Positions 4,442 through 16,101 of a stretch of DNA of 64,000 nucleotides are shown here, one piece after another; position 1 is the stretch's first letter; each line of letters begins with the position of its first letter. This stretch comes from Candidatus Zambryskiibacteriota bacterium (GTDB taxonomy: Bacteria; Patescibacteriota; Minisyncoccia; Phycocordibacterales; WO2-35-19): the NCBI GenBank assembly GCA_963840745.1, contig CAWJAC010000005.1, positions 17,615-81,614 of the forward strand, in the 5' to 3' direction. Position numbers and translations under genes: made by a program. The notes under the pieces are model-generated. The model saw only the letters and a list, made by a program, of their open reading frames with translations. It did no database searches and had not been told where the DNA came from.

Positions 4442-5167
4442 ATGAAAATAAGTATTGTTATACCGGTATGTAATGAAGAGAAAGATATTGAGAGACTAAT
4501 AGATTGTCTTTTGAATTTGTCCATAGAGAAAGAGATTATCGTTACTGACGATGCCAGTACCGACAAAACCCTGCAGGTGCTTGAAAAATATCAAGACAAA
4601 ATAAGGATACTTACCCATGAACACAGAAACAAATCCATTGCAGCAAACAGAAATGCCGGCGCCAAATACGCAAGCGGTGAATTTTTGGTTTTTATGGACG
4701 GCACCACTTACCTCAAAAATCCAAATGATTTTTTCAGTCGAGCTCTGGCAATATTTGAAAAAGATAAAGATTTGGTCGCTGTAACAGGTAAATTAAAGGT
4801 ACTGCCAGAGTTTGAGACAGTGGCTGATAAGATAATGCATTTTATTTTCAATTTCACGGTAATGATCAAGGATAATTATCTCGGGTTAACCGAAGCTTCT
4901 GGCAAATTTGAAATGATTAGAAGACTGGCCTTTGAAAAAGTGGGTGGCTTTGACGAAAAATTAATCACCAGAGAAGACGCCGATATGTTCTGGAGATTAT
5001 CCAAAATCGGCAAGACCAGATATGCGAGAGAATTGGAGGTTCTTTACACCGGCCGCAGAGCCCATATTTTGGGTTGGCCAAGACTGCTTTTTATATGGAT
5101 GACAGAAACTCTCTGGGTGATGGTATTTGGCAGAGCCAGGACAAAAGTATGGACGGTCGTAAGATAA
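4442..5167 (+). CDS. family 2 glycosyltransferase
   Basis: 241 aa. 'ISIVIPVCNEE...DDASTD' is a GT-A fold DxD-type signature. Confidence 0.8.
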   Translation: MKISIVIPVCNEEKDIERLIDCLLNLSIEKEIIVTDDASTDKTLQVLEKYQDKIRILTHEHRNKSIAANRNAGAKYASGEFLVFMDGTTYLKNPNDFFSRALAIFEKDKDLVAVTGKLKVLPEFETVADKIMHFIFNFTVMIKDNYLGLTEASGKFEMIRRLAFEKVGGFDEKLITREDADMFWRLSKIGKTRYARELEVLYTGRRAHILGWPRLLFIWMTETLWVMVFGRARTKVWTVVR

Positions 5168-5173
5168 TAAAAT

Positions 5174-5893
5174 ATGAAAATAAGTTTGGTCATACCAAGT
5201 TTCAATGAGGAAAAATATATAGGCGAATGTCTGAAAAATGCCCTGCAAAATGGCAAGGAACTTTTTGAGATAATAGTGGTTAATAATGCCAGCACCGATA
5301 ATACTGAAAGTGTAGCTAAATTTTTTTCAAATAATTATTCAAATATAAAAATCGTAAATGAGCCGAGAAAAGGCTTAACTAAGGCCCGCCAAAGAGGACT
5401 GCTAGAAGCGAGAGGGAATATAATCGCTTACACTGATGCTGATACTAAAATGCCAAACGATTGGGTAAAAAAAATTAACAAATATTTTGAAAAAGATGGA
5501 AAAACGGTGTGTGTCAGCGGGCCTTATATTTATTATGATCAATCATTTATTGGAAAAATATTGGTCTGGATTTATTGGCTTTTCGCTTATATAATGTATT
5601 TCTTGGTAGGATATATGGCGGTTGGAGGAAATTTTGCCGTGAGGAAAGAGGCTCTTCTGAAAATCGGCGGGTTTGACCAAAATATAAGTTTCTACGGAGA
5701 AGACACCGATATAGCCAGAAGGCTGTCCAAGGTCGGCAAAGTCAAATTCTTCCTGAATCTATATATGTACACTTCTGCCAGGCGTTTAAAGAATGAGGGA
5801 ATGGTAAAAATGACAATAAAATATCTGATTAATTTTATTTCTGAAGTATTTTTTAAAAAACCCATTACGGACGAATATAAAGACATAAGATAA
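5174..5893 (+). CDS. family 2 glycosyltransferase
   Basis: 239 aa. 'ISLVIPSFNEE...VVNNASTDNT', 'DADT'. Paralogous to the upstream GT2 gene. Confidence 0.8.
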   Translation: MKISLVIPSFNEEKYIGECLKNALQNGKELFEIIVVNNASTDNTESVAKFFSNNYSNIKIVNEPRKGLTKARQRGLLEARGNIIAYTDADTKMPNDWVKKINKYFEKDGKTVCVSGPYIYYDQSFIGKILVWIYWLFAYIMYFLVGYMAVGGNFAVRKEALLKIGGFDQNISFYGEDTDIARRLSKVGKVKFFLNLYMYTSARRLKNEGMVKMTIKYLINFISEVFFKKPITDEYKDIR

Positions 5894-6531
5894 TGGAAAA
5901 AATCAAAGCAAAATATAAGATCCATTTTGGCAGCAGAGATTTTTTGATATCTTTGTTGGTTTCTTTTTTTATACTTGGTGTGGCATTGGTGGCCAATCAT
6001 TATGCCGGTATTTACGTCACAGAAAAAGCCAGCAACCCGGTCACGGATATAGTCTTGGACAATACAAGAGTTTATGATGTAGATGCCATTTTTGTTTACG
6101 GGCCGGTTCTTATGTGGATATTTGTCGCCGGTTTGCTTGCTATCCATCCACAACGTATTCCTTTCCTTATAAAAAGTACCGGTCTGTTTTACCTGATCCG
6201 TTCTGTTTTTATAAGCCTTACTCACATAGCTCCGCCCGCAATGCATGCTGTTATACCATCAACCGGATTATTTGGTTATCTTGGTTCGGGAGCCGACTTG
6301 TTTTTTTCTGCGCATACGGGCTTTCCATTTTTGCTAGCTCTTATGTTTTGGGAAAATAAGAGTTTACGTATTTTCTTTATTATTCTTTCTTTGGTTTTTG
6401 GGGTTGTGGTTTTGCTTGGGCATTTACACTATTCCATCGACGTGTTGTCCGCCTTCTTTATTTCATACGGCATTTACCGCATAACCGAAATAATTTTTCC
6501 AAAAGACAGGGAGAGATTCCTATCCGCATAA
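5893..6531 (+). CDS. PAP2_C-like lipid phosphotransferase/phosphatase membrane protein
   Basis: 212 aa polytopic. 'FFSAHTG' and 'GHLHYSIDVLSAF' match the PAP2_C / sphingomyelin-synthase-like (F)SGHT and HYTxDV motifs. Confidence 0.5.
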   Translation: MEKIKAKYKIHFGSRDFLISLLVSFFILGVALVANHYAGIYVTEKASNPVTDIVLDNTRVYDVDAIFVYGPVLMWIFVAGLLAIHPQRIPFLIKSTGLFYLIRSVFISLTHIAPPAMHAVIPSTGLFGYLGSGADLFFSAHTGFPFLLALMFWENKSLRIFFIILSLVFGVVVLLGHLHYSIDVLSAFFISYGIYRITEIIFPKDRERFLSA

Positions 6532-6551
6532 TAATCGGATAACAATAAAAA

Positions 6552-8402
6552 ATGCGACTTATAATAAAAACAGCTAAATTTGATATCGTTCTTTCTTTAT
6601 TGATAGTTCTAGCTATAGCGCTACATTTCAGCGGTTTTGGAAAAACTCAAATAGCTTCTTATTTTTTGATCGCCATCGCCATAATCGGCACGTTGCCGGT
6701 CGCAATAAGTGCTGTCCGCCAGATATTTAAAAAAGAAATTTCAATGGACCTTCTGGCTTCTGTTGCTTTAATTTTTTCTCTTTTAAGTGCAGAGTGGGTG
6801 GGAGCTTCATTTATCGCCCTTATGATAACCGCCGCCCGCATTTTAAAATCAGTCACTGAGAGTCAGACAGAAAGAAGCATAAAAAGCCTTTTCAAATTAC
6901 GCCCTAAAAAAGCCAGAGTAATAAAAAATAATGATATTGAAGAAATACCCATAGAAAAATTAAAAATGGGAGATGTTGTGATAGTTGATTTGGGAGACAG
7001 AGTGCCGGTAGACGGGAAGGTGGTTTCGGGCACTTTTAGTATTGACGAATCGTCTCTCACCGGAGAATCCATGCCAGTCGATAAAAATACTGGCGACAAA
7101 GTTTTCAGCTCTACTATTGTTGTTTCCGGAAGCGGTCATATTTTGGTGGAAAAAATAGGCAGCAATACCACTTTGGAAAAAATTATATCTCTGCTTGAGT
7201 CTTCTGGAAAATTCAAGCCGCGCTTCCAAACCATTGGAGAAAAATTCGGCAAGATTTATTTAATGGGAATTTTTATAGTTTCTTTCCTGTCCCTTTATAT
7301 TACCCACAACACTAGTCTAGTTTTATCAATTTTGCTTGTCATTTGCGCCGATGACGTGGCCGTGGCAGTGCCGCTGGCTTATCTTTCGGCCACTAGACGA
7401 GCCGCCAAAATTGGCACCATTATAAAAGGCAGCAGTTACTTGGAAGCTTTGGGAAAAGTTGATACGGTTGTTTTTGACAAAACCGGAACCTTGACCAAAG
7501 GTCATTTGCAGGTAAGCGAAATAAAATCTTTTTCACAATATAGTGACAAGGAATTGCTTTCTTTTTGCGGTTCTCTCATGGAACAATCCAGCCACCCCGT
7601 TTCCAAAACAATTTTTAATTATGCTAAAGATCAAAAAGTTCATTTGGAATTGGTGGAAAACGTAGAGGAGATCGGCGGCATGGGATTAACTGGCAAATTT
7701 GAAAACAAACAGATTCTTTTTGGCCGAAAAGCTTTTTTAGTATCACGTAAAATAGATATTAGCGAAGAAGCTTCGGCAGAAATATCACGTCTTGAAAATG
7801 ACGGCAAGAGCAATTCTTTCGTGGTGGTAGACGGTAAGCTCGCCGGCATTATAGCCCTGACAGATGAAGTGCGTGAGGAAGCCAAAGAAGCCATTAGCCG
7901 CATAAAAAAACTGGGCATTAAAAAAGTTGTGATGCTTACCGGCGATAATGAAAAAGTGGCCGGAAGGATCGCCAGAGAAGTTGGCATAACCGAATTTCAT
8001 GCCAACCTTTTCCCCGAACAAAAAGTTGCTTACATTAAAAAATATATCGATGCCAAAGAAAATGTGGCCATGGTGGGGGATGGGGTCAATGACGCCGCGG
8101 CAATGCGCATAGCCACCGTCGGCATTGCTATGGGAGCCATCGGTTATGACACCGCCATCGAATCGGCCGACATAGTGCTTATGAGAGATGACATTTCAAA
8201 AATTGCCGAGGTTATGAAATTGGCCAGATTTACCGAACATGTATCTATCCAGGATTTTTGGATTTGGGGATTTTCCAATGTCTTGGGTCTTTCCCTCGTC
8301 TTTATCGGTGCGGTTGGCCCGACCGGCGCCGCCGCTTACAATTTCCTGACCGACTTTTTCCCTCTCTTTAATTCCCTAAGAGCCGGTAAAACTAGACAAT
8401 AA
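6552..8402 (+). CDS. P-type (P1B-like) cation-transporting ATPase lacking an N-terminal metal-binding domain
   Basis: 616 aa. Phosphorylation motif 'DKTGTLT', 'TGDN' and 'GDGVNDAAAM' hinge. The TM helix upstream reads 'ICADDVAVAVP', aligning to CopA 'CPCALGLATP'. Confidence 0.85.
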   Translation: MRLIIKTAKFDIVLSLLIVLAIALHFSGFGKTQIASYFLIAIAIIGTLPVAISAVRQIFKKEISMDLLASVALIFSLLSAEWVGASFIALMITAARILKSVTESQTERSIKSLFKLRPKKARVIKNNDIEEIPIEKLKMGDVVIVDLGDRVPVDGKVVSGTFSIDESSLTGESMPVDKNTGDKVFSSTIVVSGSGHILVEKIGSNTTLEKIISLLESSGKFKPRFQTIGEKFGKIYLMGIFIVSFLSLYITHNTSLVLSILLVICADDVAVAVPLAYLSATRRAAKIGTIIKGSSYLEALGKVDTVVFDKTGTLTKGHLQVSEIKSFSQYSDKELLSFCGSLMEQSSHPVSKTIFNYAKDQKVHLELVENVEEIGGMGLTGKFENKQILFGRKAFLVSRKIDISEEASAEISRLENDGKSNSFVVVDGKLAGIIALTDEVREEAKEAISRIKKLGIKKVVMLTGDNEKVAGRIAREVGITEFHANLFPEQKVAYIKKYIDAKENVAMVGDGVNDAAAMRIATVGIAMGAIGYDTAIESADIVLMRDDISKIAEVMKLARFTEHVSIQDFWIWGFSNVLGLSLVFIGAVGPTGAAAYNFLTDFFPLFNSLRAGKTRQ

Positions 8403-8403
8403 A

Positions 8404-8998
8404 ATGGAAGATAAAATATTACAAAATAAAACAGATAAGACTGACCAGGAATTCGTCAAAGTGGCCCTTAAGGACCGGCATGCTTTTTCGGAAATTGTGC
8501 ATCGCTATGAAGCAGCTATCCGCCGCTATGTGAAGCGTCTCGGCTGTAAAAATGAGAACGACGTAGATGATGTTTTGCAAGAAATTTTCATAAAAGTATT
8601 CATTAATCTCAATGACTATGATCCAAATCTGAAGTTTTCTTCATGGCTCTATCGCATTGCTCACAACGAAACCATCTCTTTTTTTAGAAAGAGAAATGTT
8701 CAGCCCAAACGTATTAGACATTGAAGATATCGAAGGATTTTTTGAAAATTTGGTTGACGATACCGATTTTACAGAACTTGCCAAAGAGCGGTATGACGCT
8801 AAAATTGTGCAGGAAGTCCTTTCTACTCTTAATCAAAAGTACAATGAAATACTTGTACTCCGCTTTCTTGAAGAAAAAAGTTATACTGAAATAAGCGACA
8901 TTTTGAAAATACCGGAAGGCACCGTGGCCACGCTCATCAGTCGGGGCAAAAAAGAATTAAAAATCGCATTGGAAGAGAGGGGTATTAAAAATATATGA
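8404..8998 (+). CDS. ECF-type sigma-70 family RNA polymerase sigma factor, interrupted by a +1 frameshift at a T7 run (8679-8685)
   Basis: ORFs 8404..8724 (region 2, 'DVLQEIFIKVF...YRIAHNETISFFRK') and 8657..8998 (region 4 HTH, 'ILVLRFLEEKSYTEISDILKIPEGTVATLISRGKKEL') are in adjacent frames. Removing one T restores a ~197 aa protein. Confidence 0.7.
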
Positions 8999-11030: not shown

Positions 11031-11101
11031 TGGGAGGTCGTCTAACGGTAGGACAACAGCCTTTGAAGCTGTGTATGAAGGTCCGATTCCTTCCCTCCCA
11101 G
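11031..11101 (+). tRNA. tRNA-Gln (anticodon UUG)
   Basis: Manual fold. Acceptor TGGGAGG/CCTCCCA. D-arm GTCT/GGAC. Anticodon stem ACAGC/GCTGT with loop CTTTGAA (anticodon TTG). 4-nt variable loop. T-arm GAAGG-TCCGATT-CCTTC. Discriminator G. CCA is not encoded. Confidence 0.85.
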
Positions 11102-12550
11102 CATTTGAGATAAAGTGCCATTTTTGGGTGCTTTATACATCACATCAAACGGAGTTTTAAGTTTAATTTGAGCCACATTTTTATCTTTGAAAGAAAGGTT
11201 CCAACATAGATTTTCTACAATATTTCTTTTTTTGAAATCATCAGCATCTAAAAATTCTTTCATGGCTCTGTTGCCTTGTAGAAAAGCATTTTTAGTCGGT
11301 TCCAACATAGAAGCTGGTTGTCTGTTTTTTAATTCTTGGATCTGCTTGTCTAGAGATATTCTGTCATTGTGAATACCCAACATTTTTTGGTCGTATATTT
11401 CCTTTGAAATCTGATCAGCAAGGAAAGTATCGAGTAATTTGTTTTCTTTCGTTTTAAGCGATTCTAGTGAGCTTTGGAGGGTAGCTAAGGCAGTGTCAAA
11501 GTATTCGGTATCTAAGCCTGCTTTCTCTTTGGCCGCTTTGTACATAAGTTCAATTTTACGTTCAGAGAAAGCCAAATTACCGAGAATATTGGCAAAAATA
11601 CTATAAAGATAAGTTTCTCTCATATAGCTTTTATGTTCTTCGCATTTCTCTTTTCTGTTGGTGCAGTAGTAATAATGATGTCCTTTTTTAAGAGAAGAGG
11701 TTAAAGCACAACCGCAATTTTCACACTTTAGGAATCCTCTTAAGGGGAAGAATAATCTTTTGGTTTTTGGTCTTGATTTATCGGCTAACAATTCTTGAGC
11801 TTTGTCATAATCAGATTTTGAAATTAATGGTTCGTGATTGCCGTTATAATATTTTCCATCTCTAACCATAATACCTGCGTAAAAAGGGGACGATAAAATT
11901 CGGCTGATGTGGCTTATCAAAACTTTCTTTCCCGATTTTGTTCGCAATCCTTCGTCAAACAAAATTCTGGCAACATCTCTGTATCCATAACTGCCAGTCA
12001 AATATAATTCATAAGCTCTTTTTACATACTTGGAACGGACAGGGTCAATGATTATTGTTTTTTTAGCTTTGTCATTCAAATATCCGAACGGAGCTTGATT
12101 AGGCCATTCACCACGAGCAAGTTTTTCTCTGTTTCCTCGTTTAACATTTACACTTAAATCTCTGATATATTGGTTTGCCATTGCTTGCTCAATGCTCATA
12201 AGCAAAACATTGTCGTTTGGATAATATGATTTTTCAAAAGTTCTAATGCATTTAATTTTATTATTTTGCAGTAGCCACTGAATTTGTCCGCCATCAACGG
12301 GATTTCTGGTTAAGCGATCAATTTTCCAACAGAGAATAGCGTCAGCTTTACCGGCAGAAAGCATTTTTATCATTTCGTTAAAAATGGGGCGACCGGGCTC
12401 TTTGGCAGATTTGCTTTCTCTTAATATTTTTACTATCTCAAAATTTTCTTTTTGAGCTATTTCTTTAAGTTCGTTTTCTTGTGAATCCAAGGACAAAACC
12501 TGTTTGTCTTCTGTATCAGTAGATTTCCGGCAATAGATTAGATATTTCAT
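11042..12550 (-). CDS. large serine recombinase (integrase)
   Basis: 502 aa. N-terminal resolvase catalytic domain 'YCRKSTDTEDKQVLSLDSQ', recombinase domain, zinc ribbon 'CENCGCALTS...YYYC', C-terminal coiled coil. The 3' end of the ORF runs antisense through tRNA-Gln. Confidence 0.85.
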   Translation of the reverse strand: MKYLIYCRKSTDTEDKQVLSLDSQENELKEIAQKENFEIVKILRESKSAKEPGRPIFNEMIKMLSAGKADAILCWKIDRLTRNPVDGGQIQWLLQNNKIKCIRTFEKSYYPNDNVLLMSIEQAMANQYIRDLSVNVKRGNREKLARGEWPNQAPFGYLNDKAKKTIIIDPVRSKYVKRAYELYLTGSYGYRDVARILFDEGLRTKSGKKVLISHISRILSSPFYAGIMVRDGKYYNGNHEPLISKSDYDKAQELLADKSRPKTKRLFFPLRGFLKCENCGCALTSSLKKGHHYYYCTNRKEKCEEHKSYMRETYLYSIFANILGNLAFSERKIELMYKAAKEKAGLDTEYFDTALATLQSSLESLKTKENKLLDTFLADQISKEIYDQKMLGIHNDRISLDKQIQELKNRQPASMLEPTKNAFLQGNRAMKEFLDADDFKKRNIVENLCWNLSFKDKNVAQIKLKTPFDVMYKAPKNGTLSQMLGGKESDLHTQLQRLLSYR

Positions 12551-13371
12551 GTTAGATAACTTTTATTAATAAACCCTATCACATCTTCCTTTAAATCAGA
12601 AAGTTCGGAAAGGTTCATAACTTCATATTGAATTTTACCCTGATAATCTGTATCAATTTCCTTACTGAATTCTGGCTTTATATTATTAAGTTTTTCCTCA
12701 ATTTTGGAAGCTAAAACTTCATCTCTTATAACAATCGGTCGGAAAAGATTTCTACTAGGAAAATATCTTTTATGCCCCTCAAGTCTTGGATCAATGAAAT
12801 CTTTGGACATATACTTAGTCATGTATAATCCGATATTTCTAACTTGCTCAATATTGCGTATTTTTATAAATCCATGCTCCCAAATTTTGGCTAATTCATC
12901 TTTATCAAACCAATGCAAATTAAAATATACTGAATGAAAATGTTCAGCTCCTCTTTTCTGAAATTCTGGGTTAGTAACATATTTTAAATGATTTGTTTTT
13001 TCTCCAGTCAGATAATAATTAAATCTTTTCAAAAAATTTGTATACATTTTATTTCCTTGCTCTAAATCAGTTATGTTTTCTGCAAAAGTTAAAGTTATAA
13101 ATTTTGGCTGATAAATTTTACCATCCGGATCAGACCACTGTCTTGCATTAGCATTAATGAGACGCGTCAGATTTTTTCTTGTCCTGTACAAAGATCTAGC
13201 TTTCATTAAATCCTTTTCCTCTTGAGTTTTAACCCTGTCGGAATCAGAATGTTTTTCCGGAGCTTCAAAACCATAAAAAACCGGCTCCTCATATTTGTAA
13301 GTTTCTACAATATCACCGGATATAACCACTTTAATTTTTGTCCTCATCGTATTAAGTGTGATATTAATCAA
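12547..13371 (-). CDS. HUH-superfamily rolling-circle replication initiator (phiX174/Microviridae gpA-like Rep)
   Basis: 274 aa. Motif I 'FITLTF', motif II 'HFHSVYF', motif III with two Tyr 'LYMTKYMSK' (compare phiX174 'YVAKYVNK'). Confidence 0.75.
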   Translation of the reverse strand: MINITLNTMRTKIKVVISGDIVETYKYEEPVFYGFEAPEKHSDSDRVKTQEEKDLMKARSLYRTRKNLTRLINANARQWSDPDGKIYQPKFITLTFAENITDLEQGNKMYTNFLKRFNYYLTGEKTNHLKYVTNPEFQKRGAEHFHSVYFNLHWFDKDELAKIWEHGFIKIRNIEQVRNIGLYMTKYMSKDFIDPRLEGHKRYFPSRNLFRPIVIRDEVLASKIEEKLNNIKPEFSKEIDTDYQGKIQYEVMNLSELSDLKEDVIGFINKSYLT

Positions 13372-13373
13372 GT

Positions 13374-13661
13374 CTAAAGAGGCGGCTCATTTTGTCGCGG
13401 GGCTTTAATGCCCGCTCCAAAATCCGCCGCCGACTTTTTACCCGAGTATGCCAAAAACAAACCAGCCAAAGAATTTAAATATTCTTCGGCTTGTTCTAGA
13501 GACAAATCTAAATTATCTTCTTCCTTGAAGACTTTAATTGTTTCGTCTATAAGTTCCTTGGAGAATGTGGCATTTAGAATATCTCCCTTATCGAGAGATA
13601 AAGATTGCCTTAAATTTTTTGGCAAGGACATCTGATTGGCCCATGCCCACACTAAATGCAA
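13374..13661 (-). CDS. hypothetical protein (mobile-element associated)
   Basis: 95 aa ORF co-oriented with and abutting the Rep gene. No recognisable motifs. Confidence 0.35.
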   Translation of the reverse strand: MHLVWAWANQMSLPKNLRQSLSLDKGDILNATFSKELIDETIKVFKEEDNLDLSLEQAEEYLNSLAGLFLAYSGKKSAADFGAGIKAPRQNEPPL

Positions 13662-13813
13662 CTACAACAGATTAAATTGTATTACGCTGAAAAAAGTTTG
13701 CAAGTTTACTGCACACGAAAATGATGCCGTGATATTCAATAAAAAAATAGAAAATTTTGCCTTAAAAATACATTTGTTTTAATTCGTGTCATATGTGATA
13801 CTTATGATTATTA

Positions 13814-14646
13814 ATGCCAATATCTACTTTAAACAAACCAATGGTAAAAATTAACAGGATTTCAAAACCATATTTTCATCATGATGGCAGAATTGCTATT
13901 TACAACGATGATATTTTAAAATTTACAAAAATACCAGATGGTTCCGTTGATCTGATCATTACATCACCACCTTACAATGTGGACATTCACTATAACTCAC
14001 ATGCAGATAATTTGAGCTATGAAGACTATTTGGAGTTCACGACAAAATGGATTAAAAGATGTTTTGAGTTAACTAAAAATGAGGGTCGTCTTTGTTTGAA
14101 TATTCCACTTGATAAAAATAAAGGCGGACAAAAATCTGTCGGTGCAGATATTACAAAAATTGCAAAAGATGTCGGCTGGAAATACCACTCAACAATTATT
14201 TGGAATGAGGGAAACATATCCCGCCGAACGGCTTGGGGTTCGTTTATGTCTGCCTCTGCCCCATATGTTATCGCACCTGTGGAATTGATTTTAATTTTAT
14301 ATAAAGATAGCTGGAAGAAAAATGGTGGGAGTAGAAAAAATGACATAACGAAACAGGAATTTATGGACTGGACTAATGGAGTTTGGACATTCAATGGCCA
14401 AAGCAAAAAAGGAGCTGGTGGACATCCGGCGGCTTTTCCAATTGAATTACCTAGGCGTTGTATCAAATTATTTAGTTTTATTGATGATATTGTGTTTGAC
14501 CCGTTTCTGGGGAGTGGTTCACTCTTATTGCTTCATATTTGAATAATCGCAAAGGTATGGGTGTTGATATTGATAAAGAATATTGCGATATTGCTATAAG
14601 TCGTTTAAAAGAGGAGGGTAAAATTAATCAGCCAATATTAATGTAA
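13814..14646 (+). CDS. beta-class N6-adenine/N4-cytosine DNA methyltransferase with a -1 frameshift near 14519-14521
   Basis: Motif IV 'DLIITSPPY' precedes motif I 'DPFLGSGS'. The ORF stops at 14542, but the neighbouring frame continues 'TLIASYLNNRKGMGVDIDKEYCDIAISRL...' to 14646, the expected MTase C-terminus. One nucleotide appears to be missing. Confidence 0.75.
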
Positions 14647-14651
14647 TTATC

Positions 14652-15254
14652 ATGAAAAAGAAAAATGAGAAGAAAGATAATAATGTTCAAAAAAATCTCA
14701 TAGTTGAGTTTTTCAAGAAAAATCCAAACAGAGATATAAAACATCCAGAGGTTGTTGACTGGGTTGTCGCAACATATAAAAAACGAACTGGTAATGTATT
14801 CCGAGACCCAGATAGAGCAGTTCGCAGTCTGGCACAAAAAGGATTTTTAATAAAAGTTGCTAAAGGAATTTATCGCTATGACCCCGAAAAAGAATTTCTA
14901 CGAGAATTACAAGATTTTACATCGGCACAAAAAGAAGAAATTTTAAAAAGAGACGGGTATAAATGTGTAATATGTGGTAGAGGAAAAGCAGACGGGATGG
15001 AACTTCATGTTGACCATATAAAACCAAAAGATTTTGGAGGTGAAGCAACAATTGAAAACGGCCAAACATTATGCTCACAACATAATTTTATAAAGAAAAA
15101 TCTCAAACAAACGGAAACAGGAAAGAAAATGTTTATCCGTTTATATGAATTGGCAAAAAGCGAAAATAACCCCGAGTTGGTAAAATTTTGTGCTGATGTA
15201 TTGGAGACCTATGAAAAACACAACATAAACGGGCATATTGTTTGGAATAAATAA
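14652..15254 (+). CDS. HNH endonuclease (putative Type II restriction endonuclease partner of the methyltransferase)
   Basis: 200 aa. 'CVICGRG...HVDHIKPKDFGG...NGQTLCSQHN' HNH motif with an N-terminal DNA-binding-like domain. Lies 6 nt downstream of the MTase frame end. Confidence 0.7.
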   Translation: MKKKNEKKDNNVQKNLIVEFFKKNPNRDIKHPEVVDWVVATYKKRTGNVFRDPDRAVRSLAQKGFLIKVAKGIYRYDPEKEFLRELQDFTSAQKEEILKRDGYKCVICGRGKADGMELHVDHIKPKDFGGEATIENGQTLCSQHNFIKKNLKQTETGKKMFIRLYELAKSENNPELVKFCADVLETYEKHNINGHIVWNK

Positions 15255-15541
15255 TTATGAAATAGAAATAAAATTTTGTTTGGAAATTTAAATAGTTATT
15301 ATGCAAACCACAACAATTTTAGATTTAATAAGAATACTGCTTTCTTGGCCACCCGTTGGAGCAATTGTTTTTTTCTTTTTTGTTTATAAGTTTGGGGGTT
15401 CAATTAAGATTTTTCTTGAAACACATGAACTAACAGGGGGCAGGACCGGTTAATGTTCAACAAAAACAGCCTAACCATTCTTCAGAAAGAGATTCAAATA
15501 ATGATTCTGTTATAGAAAATCCCGAATTAGAAAAAGAGAAA

Positions 15542-15907
15542 TTGAAAAAAGAAATAGATGACCTAAAAATAAAGGTTGAGAATGAGTCTAGGGGTAAAAA
15601 AAATCTAGAAGAACTTTTTGGTGTACAGCAAAGACTAACTGAAATAAATGAATTTTCATATCTAGCTTTATTTTTTGTTGATCAAACAAAGAGAGTTTTA
15701 AAATGGTTTTATGATTCAAAAAGTAATCAAACCATCACCAAAGAATCATTTAACCAATTATGGTTGCCATTTATTACAGATTTGAACCAAAGAGAGGTTA
15801 TTTTTACTCTTTTAAATGCTTACGGAATGATATCAGGTGTTCTTGGGGGAGCATTTGTTATTACAGAAAAAGGTGAACGATTTTTAAAATCTATAAATTT
15901 TATTTAA
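15542..15907 (+). CDS. hypothetical protein
   Basis: 121 aa ORF with a TTG start. The reading frame is open further upstream with no in-frame ATG. No motifs. Confidence 0.3.
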   Translation: MKKEIDDLKIKVENESRGKKNLEELFGVQQRLTEINEFSYLALFFVDQTKRVLKWFYDSKSNQTITKESFNQLWLPFITDLNQREVIFTLLNAYGMISGVLGGAFVITEKGERFLKSINFI

Positions 15908-16101
15908 TTAAACAGGTTCCAACTTCGTACCAGACGGCCAGCCACAGTCAGCGAGGTGTAGAGCAGACCGGAGAGCCTTATTTTGAGCAATATTTCTAGA
16001 ACTACTAAAATTCGTCCATGATGGGTAGAAATTACTAAAATGCAAAATGTGTTTCAAAATAAAGAAAAAGCGAGATTCGATTCCTAGAAACATAAAATGC
16101 T

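Follow-up and report, generated by a model that had tools for sequence, protein, structure and literature searches.

What is a gene for a phiX174-like replication protein doing in a bacterial chromosome, with no capsid gene beside it? The question is raised by a 64,000-nucleotide stretch of a Candidatus Zambryskiibacteriota assembly (contig CAWJAC010000005.1), hereafter called the window, in which a rolling-circle Rep gene lies next to a serine integrase gene. The answer that we consider likely is that positions 11103-15942 of the window are an integrative rolling-circle replicon, a mini-plasmid that has integrated into the chromosome of a Zambryskibacteria-like bacterium of the Patescibacteria. 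A first-pass annotation, made from the sequence alone, had favoured an integrative rolling-circle plasmid or a satellite over a microvirus prophage. That suggestion has held up. The element has defined attachment (att) sites and no recognisable structural genes within its 4,840 bp. The identities of Rep and integrase, the conservation of an origin motif and hairpin, the two junctions, the recurrence of the architecture in relatives and the circular form of one relative are all observed directly.

The Rep protein and its origin

The Rep is a genuine HUH rolling-circle initiator of the PF23343 (REP_ORF2-G2P) or pHT926 type, and its family match lies far beyond chance. It matches PF23343 with 74.1 bits (E 1.2e-20) over profile positions 2-98 of 99, against a curated cut-off of 27.8 bits. 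PHROG families 3419 and 3584, both of them rolling-circle initiators, match it at ~1e-20. Motif I (FITLTF), motif II (HFHSVYF, with its HFH) and motif III (YMTKYMSK, with its YMTKY) had been claimed for a minus-strand open reading frame (ORF) at 12547-13371 and a profile search had been proposed; all three motifs are present, and the search returned the significant HUH-family matches just given. Further evidence comes from an alignment of 24 homologues, 33-54% identical, in which F83, T87, H136, H138, Y175, K178 and Y179 are invariant. Homologues are numerous: a word-indexed search found 447, and an exhaustive phmmer search against 1.84 billion representatives raised this to 3,217, with E<=1e-10 for 1,723. 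By analogy, the protein would nick and join DNA through its HUH motif and its two tyrosines.

One detail of the first-pass annotation had to be corrected. It started the ORF at TTG 13371, but the real start is the ATG at 13347, which gives a protein of 266 aa equal to database protein P0001. The eight codons 5' of this ATG, from the TTG onward, are a conserved non-coding origin motif. The AlphaFold2 model of the Rep (pLDDT 89.4, pTM 0.87) finds HUH domains as its best PDB matches, namely those of SIRV1 ORF119, the AAV, PCV2 and TYLCV Reps and the Helitron transposase, but at an E value of only ~4e-3. The model also matches 281 predicted viral structures at E<=1e-3, with TM scores up to 0.64, and the named top matches are rolling-circle Reps, microvirus Reps among them. 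A sequence search of PDB chains returned chance matches only.

How close is this Rep to gpA of phiX174? In an hhalign comparison (probability 47%, E 2e-4), FITLTF pairs with FDTLTL, HFHSVYF with HFHAVHF and GLYMTKYMSK with GFYVAKYVNK. PF23343 scores gpA at 33.5 bits, which is above the cut-off, and the pHT926 Rep at 78.7 bits. The earlier assignment of gpA-like catalytic residues is therefore right. BLASTP between the two proteins is marginal (E 0.001 in a one-sequence search). The accompanying label of a Microviridae-type Rep is correct at the superfamily level only. The Phage_GPA family PF05840, which matches gpA itself at 4.8e-62, gives no match to the window Rep at E<=1, and the Reps of plasmids and inoviruses are closer. 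The Rep of pHT926 from Brevibacillus borstelensis is 39% identical (E 5e-54) and that of Geobacillus pGTG5 37% identical, and other small Firmicutes plasmids are also among the closest annotated relatives. The best matches among phage records are inoviruses, led by bajarodino virus 41 (E 1e-28), which carries Zot. A faint match to PF20199, a RepSA-type family, is also present.

These comparisons refute, for practical purposes, a reading of the locus as a degenerate microvirus prophage, whether phiX174-like or gokushovirus-like. Such a prophage would account for the catalytic motifs and the origin that resemble phiX174, and some Microviridae Reps are indeed detectable (~1e-7 by sequence, ~1e-8 by predicted fold). 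However, the ~1e-7 that microvirus Reps reach falls far short of the plasmid and inovirus Reps, and the Phage_GPA family is not matched. Nor is there a capsid, scaffold, pilot or lysis gene in the element, all 4,840 bp of which are accounted for by other genes, and no relative examined has a microvirus capsid gene beside a serine integrase.

A side observation concerns the smallest plasmids with this type of Rep. Five contigs of 1,796 bp (L066, L067, L073, L076 and L079) carry a pHT926-like Rep and the same nick-motif region, and they form a tight cluster in the Rep tree. Their assemblies belong to the unrelated genera Streptomyces, Microbacterium and Herminiimonas and have an "NPDC" naming in common. 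This plasmid is probably a shared laboratory or reagent contaminant and not a resident replicon.

Where would the Rep act? The window has a motif reading GACTTGATTAATATCACAC (13374-13356, minus strand; short form ACTTGATTAATATCACAC) just upstream of the rep gene. On the Rep strand its consensus is TAACTTGATTATA..CACAC.TAA..GAAA, located 25-60 nt 5' of the Rep ATG. The motif is kept in most of the 89 Rep loci that were surveyed, including pHT926 and several plasmid contigs of 1-2 kb, and the GenBank record of pHT926 is linearised exactly at it. The annotated origin of phiX174, CAACTTGATATTAATAACAC (around rep_origin 4306), matches the window motif. It is between G and A that gpA cleaves the phiX174 origin, and because the two sites match, the nick is predicted between 13369 and 13368 on the minus strand.

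The hairpin next to this motif folds as DNA at -19 kcal/mol (z -3.8), a stability that none of 200 shuffles reached, and under RNA parameters at -28.2 kcal/mol (z -5.5). Relatives have hairpins of differing sequence at the same place, with z values down to -8.8 and below -2 in 60% of the integrase-linked loci. Together, the motif and the hairpin have the anatomy expected of a double-strand origin, and the region is a candidate for one at which Rep would cleave. A search for a nick-site hairpin had been advised for 13.37-13.81 kb. It yielded this candidate at 13356-13430, which overlaps the ORF start as then called, but none was accepted in the intergenic region at 13.66-13.81 kb. A phiX-like string there, GTGATATTCAATAA (13727-13740, plus strand), was considered as the origin and rejected because relatives do not keep it.

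Junctions, relatives and the integrase tail

The element has a GC content of 33.2%, against 39-40% on its flanks, and it begins directly after a tRNA-Gln(UUG) gene. This gene is intact, yet it ends ...CCCAG-CAT. The longest string common to the two junctions is CCAGC, which makes up the last bases of the tRNA gene at attL and is followed by CACAGTC at attR. The uninterrupted tRNA gene would therefore end ...CCCAG-CCA, with an encoded CCA that is absent from the integrated copy, and its flank is predicted to continue ...CCACAGTCAGCG. The predicted empty attB site reads ...CCCTCCCAGCCACAGTC... / ...GATTCCTTCCCTCCCAGCCACAGTCAGCGAGG..., and the predicted attP junction reads ...TCAAATGCTGGCCGTCTGGTACGAAGTTGGAACC... 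/ ...CTTTATCTCAAATGCTGGCCGTCTGGTACGAAGTTGGAACCTGTTTAA.... The core measures 5 bp in the window and 5-9 bp in relatives. Its distance from the conserved P' arm is fixed, and in five of the seven loci compared it begins at the tRNA 3' end or one base earlier. No long direct tRNA repeats were found at the far end of the island, because the core, as is typical of serine integrases, is only 5 bp.

Evidence that such a unit is recurrent comes from the survey of Rep loci. A serine integrase gene lies directly 3' of rep and on the same strand in 45 of the 89 loci. Where the contig continues, an antisense tRNA gene is found at the integrase end or within a few hundred bases of it in 36 of 39 loci, mostly overlapping it. 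The tRNA is most often that for Gln; those for Lys, Gly, Ser, Trp, Ile, Asn, Asp and Glu are also used. One relative, L008, carries the small ORF that precedes rep in this family, the Rep, the integrase and ThsB-TIR/Trypco2 cargo, and has a 121-bp terminal overlap, and it is therefore a circle of 4,407 bp. Another, L089, is an independent European Nucleotide Archive (ENA) contig of 4,823 bp whose genes and gene order are those of the window element. Its alignment covers positions 15919..11100 of the window at 92.8% identity, and its ends lie 19 and 2 nt from the predicted junctions. L089 supports a discrete element that can be assembled apart from the chromosome; it is no proof of a free circle.

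The integrase itself is readily identified by Resolvase (PF00239, 2.9e-23), Recombinase (PF07508, 3.2e-16) and Zn_ribbon_recom (PF13408, 6.8e-7) domains and by a match to the integrase family PHROG 95 (2e-89). Its ORF reaches 61 nt into the tRNA gene. As a result, the last 20 codons (11042-11102) come from the tRNA antisense strand, and the integrated protein ends ...SQMLGGKESDLHTQLQRLLSYR, of which MLGGKESDLHTQLQRLLSYR is antisense-encoded. In the reconstructed excised circle of 4,840 bp, the integrase is 496 aa long and ends ...SQMLAVWYEVGTCLIK (tail MLAVWYEVGTCLIK). This 3' end is found as an orphan at the far end of the integrated element. The same is seen elsewhere: counting the window, 10 distinct integrated loci have an orphan tail of the form W[DY][DE]VGT (coding sequence TGG GAY GAN GTT GGA AC, for W-D-D/E-V-G-T) at 3.3-6.8 kb upstream of the end of the integrase, against an estimated chance expectation of ~0.007 per locus. 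In the circular L008 the tail is in frame with the integrase, ending ...MWTLWDDVGTNLILLGFH, and the reconstructed window tail is homologous to it. As judged from these sequences, attP is inside the integrase 3' end, so that integration swaps the C-terminal tail of the integrase, and this is a family-wide feature.

A further locus displays an unusual arrangement of these tails. In L030, a Saccharibacteria metagenome-assembled genome contig (CAYVMF010000002.1), LWDEVGT orphan tails occur at 1216, 3218 and 4006, upstream of a single Rep-integrase module at tRNA-Ser. The three P' arms suggest a tandem array or the remnants of successive insertions at one site.

How would the element go through its life cycle? 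If the window copy is active, the serine integrase would recombine attL with attR, releasing a 4.84-kb circle and restoring the tRNA-Gln gene with its encoded CCA end. On the circle the integrase would regain its own 3' end: attP is located ~12 codons ahead of the integrase stop, so that the tail ...MLAVWYEVGTCLIK would take the place of the tRNA-antisense tail ...MLGGKESDLHTQLQRLLSYR. Rep would then bind the region of the hairpin and nick motif just upstream of its gene and cleave ACTTG^AT (caret, predicted cut) with one tyrosine and an HUH-bound metal, as in phiX174 gpA and pC194-type plasmids. The nick would prime leading-strand synthesis by a host polymerase, and the second tyrosine would close the displaced strand. 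Re-integration would be aimed at the last bases of a tRNA gene.

Gene content and mobility

The features of the element are collected in Table 1. Its backbone consists of the small ORF, rep and the large serine integrase gene, in this order on the minus strand, and is probably one operon. The integrase gene (11042..12550) had been linked to rep at the outset, and the two are indeed adjoining: the rep stop overlaps the integrase start (ATGA, 12547-12550), which suggests translational coupling of replication and integration functions. In 15 further integrase-linked loci a homologue of the small ORF is found at this position. The sole Pfam match of the window ORF is a sub-threshold MazE/AbrB one in an N-terminal extension. 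The ORF may encode a regulator or an accessory factor. No recombination directionality factor was recognised in the element, and the small ORF is a candidate for one by position alone.

Table 1. Features of the element and its target, in window positions (caret, predicted nick)
Feature	Position	Strand	Basis
tRNA-Gln(UUG), integration target	11031..11102	+	ARAGORN; Rfam RF00005, 61.8 bits
Large serine integrase, 502 aa as integrated	11042..12550	-	Pfam, PHROG
attL common core CCAGC, last bases of tRNA gene	11098..11102	.	longest string common to attL/attR junctions
HUH two-tyrosine rolling-circle Rep, 266 aa	12547..13347	-	Pfam, PHROG, alignment, model
Candidate double-strand-origin nick motif GACTTG^ATTAATATCACAC	13356..13374	-	conservation, phiX174 match
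Conserved small ORF upstream of Rep, core ~47 aa (...FSKELI...LSLEQAEEYLNSLAGLFLAY)	13374..13631	-	homologues in relatives
GC-rich extended hairpin directly 5' of nick motif, overlapping small-ORF 3' end	13382..13430	-	folding vs shuffles
Type II N4/N6 DNA methyltransferase (cargo)	13814..14646	+	PF01555 2e-35; PADLOC MTase_II 1.2e-82
HNH nuclease with N-terminal DNA-binding-like region (cargo)	14652..15254	+	PF01844 6e-10; weak PADLOC REase_II 1.5e-5
Cargo ORF50 (one hydrophobic segment) and ORF121	15301..15907	+	three-frame translation
Orphan integrase 3' end = attP P' arm, encoding ...A-V-W-Y-E-V-G-T-C-L-I-K-stop	15900..15937	-	conserved GTTGGAAC
attR common core CCAGC, then CACAGTC	15938..15942	.	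junction comparison, reconstruction

The remaining 2.3 kb are exchangeable cargo on the opposite strand, separated from the small ORF by a 150-bp intergenic region. The first-pass annotation had linked the Rep to a restriction-modification system. A methyltransferase gene and an HNH nuclease gene do follow, but the methyltransferase reads as frameshifted and the HNH protein is only weakly like a restriction enzyme. Three-frame translation puts an apparent frameshift in the methyltransferase gene near 14520. The called ORF stops at 14542, the C-terminal part can be followed in a different frame as far as 14646, and the frame switch (14515-14545) comes right after motif I (DPFLGSGS / TLIASYLNNRKGMGVDIDKEY...). 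The HNH nuclease is the putative restriction partner of the methyltransferase. Its close homologue in element L013 adjoins a C5 methyltransferase, i.e. a methyltransferase of another type. ORF50 (15301-15453) and ORF121 overlap in different frames at a run of five G (15436-15440) and are probably one gene split by an indel there. ORF121 has no family match in Pfam, PHROG or PADLOC, and ORF50 has none in PADLOC, the one collection with which it was screened.

Capsid and scaffold genes had been reported missing near the Rep, and this is confirmed for the element and its flanks, where no Zot gene was found either (Pfam, PHROG and, for Zot, tblastn). Within the element, no capsid, scaffold, Zot or pIII-like gene was matched (Pfam and PHROG on the main ORFs, PADLOC alone for ORF50). 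The Rfam scan found tRNA only, and scans for promoters and terminators did not exceed what shuffled sequence would give. Outside the element the window otherwise holds housekeeping genes, and its TypA protein is 85-87% identical to Candidatus Zambryskibacteria proteins.

Several points weigh against an integrative replicon. Excision and replication of the window copy are putative. So are cleavage at the nick site, the part played by the hairpin and any function of the tail swap, all three of which are argued by analogy; the hairpin could merely terminate the small ORF, and the conservation of GTTGGAAC may reflect integrase binding to attP and not coding constraint. L089 could be a second integrated copy whose contig was broken at the repeat boundaries. 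An exact 21-mer scan of metagenome contigs for the empty attB returned one unrelated chance match (L153). A search for attB by synteny through MltG homologues did not find it either, the closest relatives being on short contigs with other neighbours. Lastly, the frameshifts in the methyltransferase gene and in ORF50/ORF121 may indicate decay.

The last point leads to a different reading, in which the element is an immobilised remnant, a decaying insertion that no longer excises or replicates. The apparent frameshifts in two cargo genes would fit it, as would an integrase whose tail has been replaced by tRNA-antisense-encoded sequence. However, a host gene for an extracytoplasmic function (ECF) sigma-70 factor (8404-8998, plus strand) is split in the same manner into overlapping parts, 8404..8724 (region 2) and 8657..8998 (region 4-like). 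An indel error of sequencing and assembly is therefore at least as likely as decay. The tail swap is not a lesion, as it occurs family-wide. Furthermore, Rep, the integrase, the small ORF, the nick motif and both att arms are intact, and the element has also been assembled as a contig of its own (L089). A remnant is thus very unlikely, and the integrative replicon is retained.

The integrase-linked relatives fall into two groups. Members of Group A have an integrase 39-58% identical to that of the window, no detectable Zot, the common backbone and, where both ends are mapped, a length of 3.3-6.8 kb. Their cargo includes a C5 methyltransferase with an HNH homologue, a type I-like methyltransferase with a specificity subunit, an AAA_15/OLD-like ATPase, TIR with Trypco2, an SPFH protein, a trypsin-like protease and a DUF559 protein. 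In Group B the integrase is ~30% identical, and in many members rep is directly preceded by genes for Zot (PF05707) and a large pIII-like protein, as would be expected of genuine inovirus prophages. Group B takes in the IMG/VR loci L101-L105. In a rough neighbour-joining tree of the Rep core, which carries no support values, the window is placed among Group A. The tiny plasmids have a cluster apart from it, as do most prophages of Group B, and a few lineages with Zot are nested close to Group A.

Other features of these relatives were recorded in passing. The inovirus-like prophages (a subset of L048-L082, and L101-L105) have Zot, a pIII-like protein of 440-590 aa, small pilin-like ORFs and a serine integrase, and they insert at tRNA-Gln, Asn, Ser or Trp. 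L102 has a LexA-like repressor at the left end of its contig. Several such prophages are binned as "Gammaproteobacteria" or "Bdellovibrionales" yet resemble Patescibacteria elements, and the bins may be wrong. Several capsid-less elements encode, upstream of the small ORF, an extra conserved backbone protein of 209-263 aa whose C-terminus bears the signature KYYxAC...NSSxxGxVKINPKYL (L002 9112-9741, L016 3598-4317, L028 3157-3948). Pfam gives no match to this protein, and the window element does not encode it.

How does a capsid-less element of this kind move between cells? One model, compatible with an integrative replicon, is that it is an inovirus satellite, a capsid-less derivative whose single-stranded DNA is packaged by a co-resident helper inovirus in the manner of RS1/CTXphi or pDolos/Dolos. 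We hold it somewhat unlikely for the window. Prophages with Zot and a pIII-like protein (among L048-L082, and L101-L105) share the Rep family, the nick motif and the Rep-serine integrase-tRNA layout with the element, and inoviruses, among them the Zot-bearing bajarodino virus 41, give the best Rep matches among phage records. Moreover, packaging of a rolling-circle plasmid by an inovirus is experimentally established, in the case of pDolos and the Shewanella filamentous phage Dolos (bioRxiv 10.1101/2023.11.28.569023). However, tblastn with three Zot proteins finds no Zot-like gene in the 64-kb window (best E 0.14), although the same queries find Zot in related Group B loci, and a packaging signal was not recognised either. 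Between the Zot-bearing group and the window, integrase identity is only ~30%, and the Reps of that group are mostly in a separate clade of the rough tree. The capsid-less group is also old and diverse, which is unlike a recent deletion derivative.

Another model is that of an integrative mobilisable element, in which Rep doubles as a non-canonical relaxase, the nick motif serves as the origin of transfer (oriT), and DNA leaves through a type IV secretion system (T4SS) of the host or of another element. Streptococcal mobilisable elements pair tyrosine or serine integrases with PHA00330 Rep-like proteins that are proposed as relaxases, according to two reports (PMC5357655, PMC5704250). Their authors list PHA00330 among domains earlier found exclusively in viral or plasmid rolling-circle initiators, citing pHT926 among those, and some members of the family that they describe have no coupling protein. 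For the most part, the type IV secretion systems of Patescibacteria have no known relaxases (PMC12102498). The window element has an integrase, flanking att sites and an initiator-like protein, as a mobilisable element should, and six relatives at tRNA-Lys (L002-L007) have three or four T4SS_pilin (PF18895) genes just outside their attR end (~4826-6874). However, these pilin genes are outside the element and their adjacency may be coincidental. The window element encodes no TcpA/VirD4 coupling protein (Pfam, PADLOC), and no type IV secretion family was matched by Pfam among ten of the largest ORFs elsewhere in the window. A relaxase role of a PF23343/pHT926-type Rep is itself putative and argued by analogy. 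We therefore regard this model as quite unlikely.

A wider proposal joins these possibilities. Capsid-less elements with Rep and a serine integrase would be a major unrecognised class of defence-gene carriers in Patescibacteria, moving as inovirus satellites or through relaxase-less T4SS with Rep as the missing relaxase, and the exchange of the integrase tail would be a directionality switch without a separate factor. As a whole this proposal is speculative and we consider it unlikely.

The integrative replicon has consequences of its own. Patescibacteria, also known as the Candidate Phyla Radiation, account for a large part of bacterial diversity, but few of their mobile elements have been described and genetic tools for them are few. 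An element of 3-7 kb with a self-sufficient replicon of Rep and mapped origin, a serine integrase with mapped attP and attB, and an exchangeable cargo slot is close to a ready shuttle or integration vector. The family also shows how defence genes (restriction-modification, TIR, OLD-like ATPases) are shuttled in reduced genomes and how one module of Rep and origin links tiny plasmids, integrative elements and filamentous phages. Furthermore, an integrase C-terminus that depends on the state of integration is a testable case for directionality control.

Comparison with known systems

Taken singly, the components are already known: pHT926-type Reps, origins of the phiX/pC194 type, large serine integrases, and elements that pair an integrase with a rolling-circle initiator. 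Their combination appears to be undescribed in the literature searched (most subscription journals lie outside it), and a prior description is possible. The features that coincide here, and appear undescribed together, are an attP inside the serine-integrase gene, a crossover in the last 5-9 nt of the tRNA and a slot for defence cargo. On the sequence evidence, the elements form a compact and widespread Patescibacterial family that is also sister to tRNA-integrating inoviruses.

The plasmids pHT926 (NC_004938, 1,786 bp) and pGTG5 (NC_022994, 1,540 bp) have Reps 37-39% identical to that of the window over near full length, with the PF23343 core in common. They also have the origin motif TAACTTGATTATAG..CAC after a GC-rich hairpin, just upstream of rep. 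However, they are free Firmicutes replicons without an integrase, an att site or cargo. What sets the window element apart is its large serine integrase, its conserved small ORF, its defence cargo and its place in a tRNA gene of a Patescibacterium. Likewise, phiX174 gpA shares with the Rep the HUH motif, motif I, the Y-x-x-K-Y two-tyrosine site and a PF23343 score above threshold, and the phiX174 origin shares the core ACTTGAT followed by an AT-rich stretch and CAC. Unlike the Rep, gpA has 513 aa and ~40 extra residues between motifs II and III, and the window has no capsid context.

The streptococcal PHA00330 elements, as described in two reports (Coluzzi 2017, PMC5357655; Guedon 2017, PMC5704250), resemble the window element in pairing an integrase with an initiator-like protein, in integrating site-specifically, often at tRNA 3' ends, and in having no virion genes and adaptive cargo that includes restriction-modification. 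However, among the elements tabulated there, those that target tRNA genes all have tyrosine integrases, TcpA is present in 19 of 21 PHA00330 elements, and an attP inside the integrase gene is not reported; the likeness is one of described features. In contrast, the window element has a large serine integrase at a tRNA terminus and no coupling protein.

Inovirus prophages and satellites resemble the element in Rep family and nick motif, and some Patescibacteria-type prophages have the Rep-serine integrase-tRNA module. Among replication-only partners of filamentous phages, RS1 integrates through the host XerCD at dif. Another such partner, pDolos, is non-integrating (bioRxiv 10.1101/2023.11.28.569023). 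The window element differs from the inoviruses and their satellites in having no Zot/pI gene and no recognisable pIII-like or coat gene, and no helper phage was identified for it.

Elements of the pSAM2 type from actinomycetes are similar in that they combine an integrase, a rolling-circle Rep (RepSA) and integration at a tRNA gene. pSAM2 has a tyrosine integrase with Xis, a Tra protein and a larger size. In SSV1-type archaeal elements attP also lies within the integrase ORF, and the gene is partitioned on integration. Integrases of the SSV type are tyrosine recombinases that are split into two large parts, whereas the serine integrase of the window element loses only its last ~12 codons.

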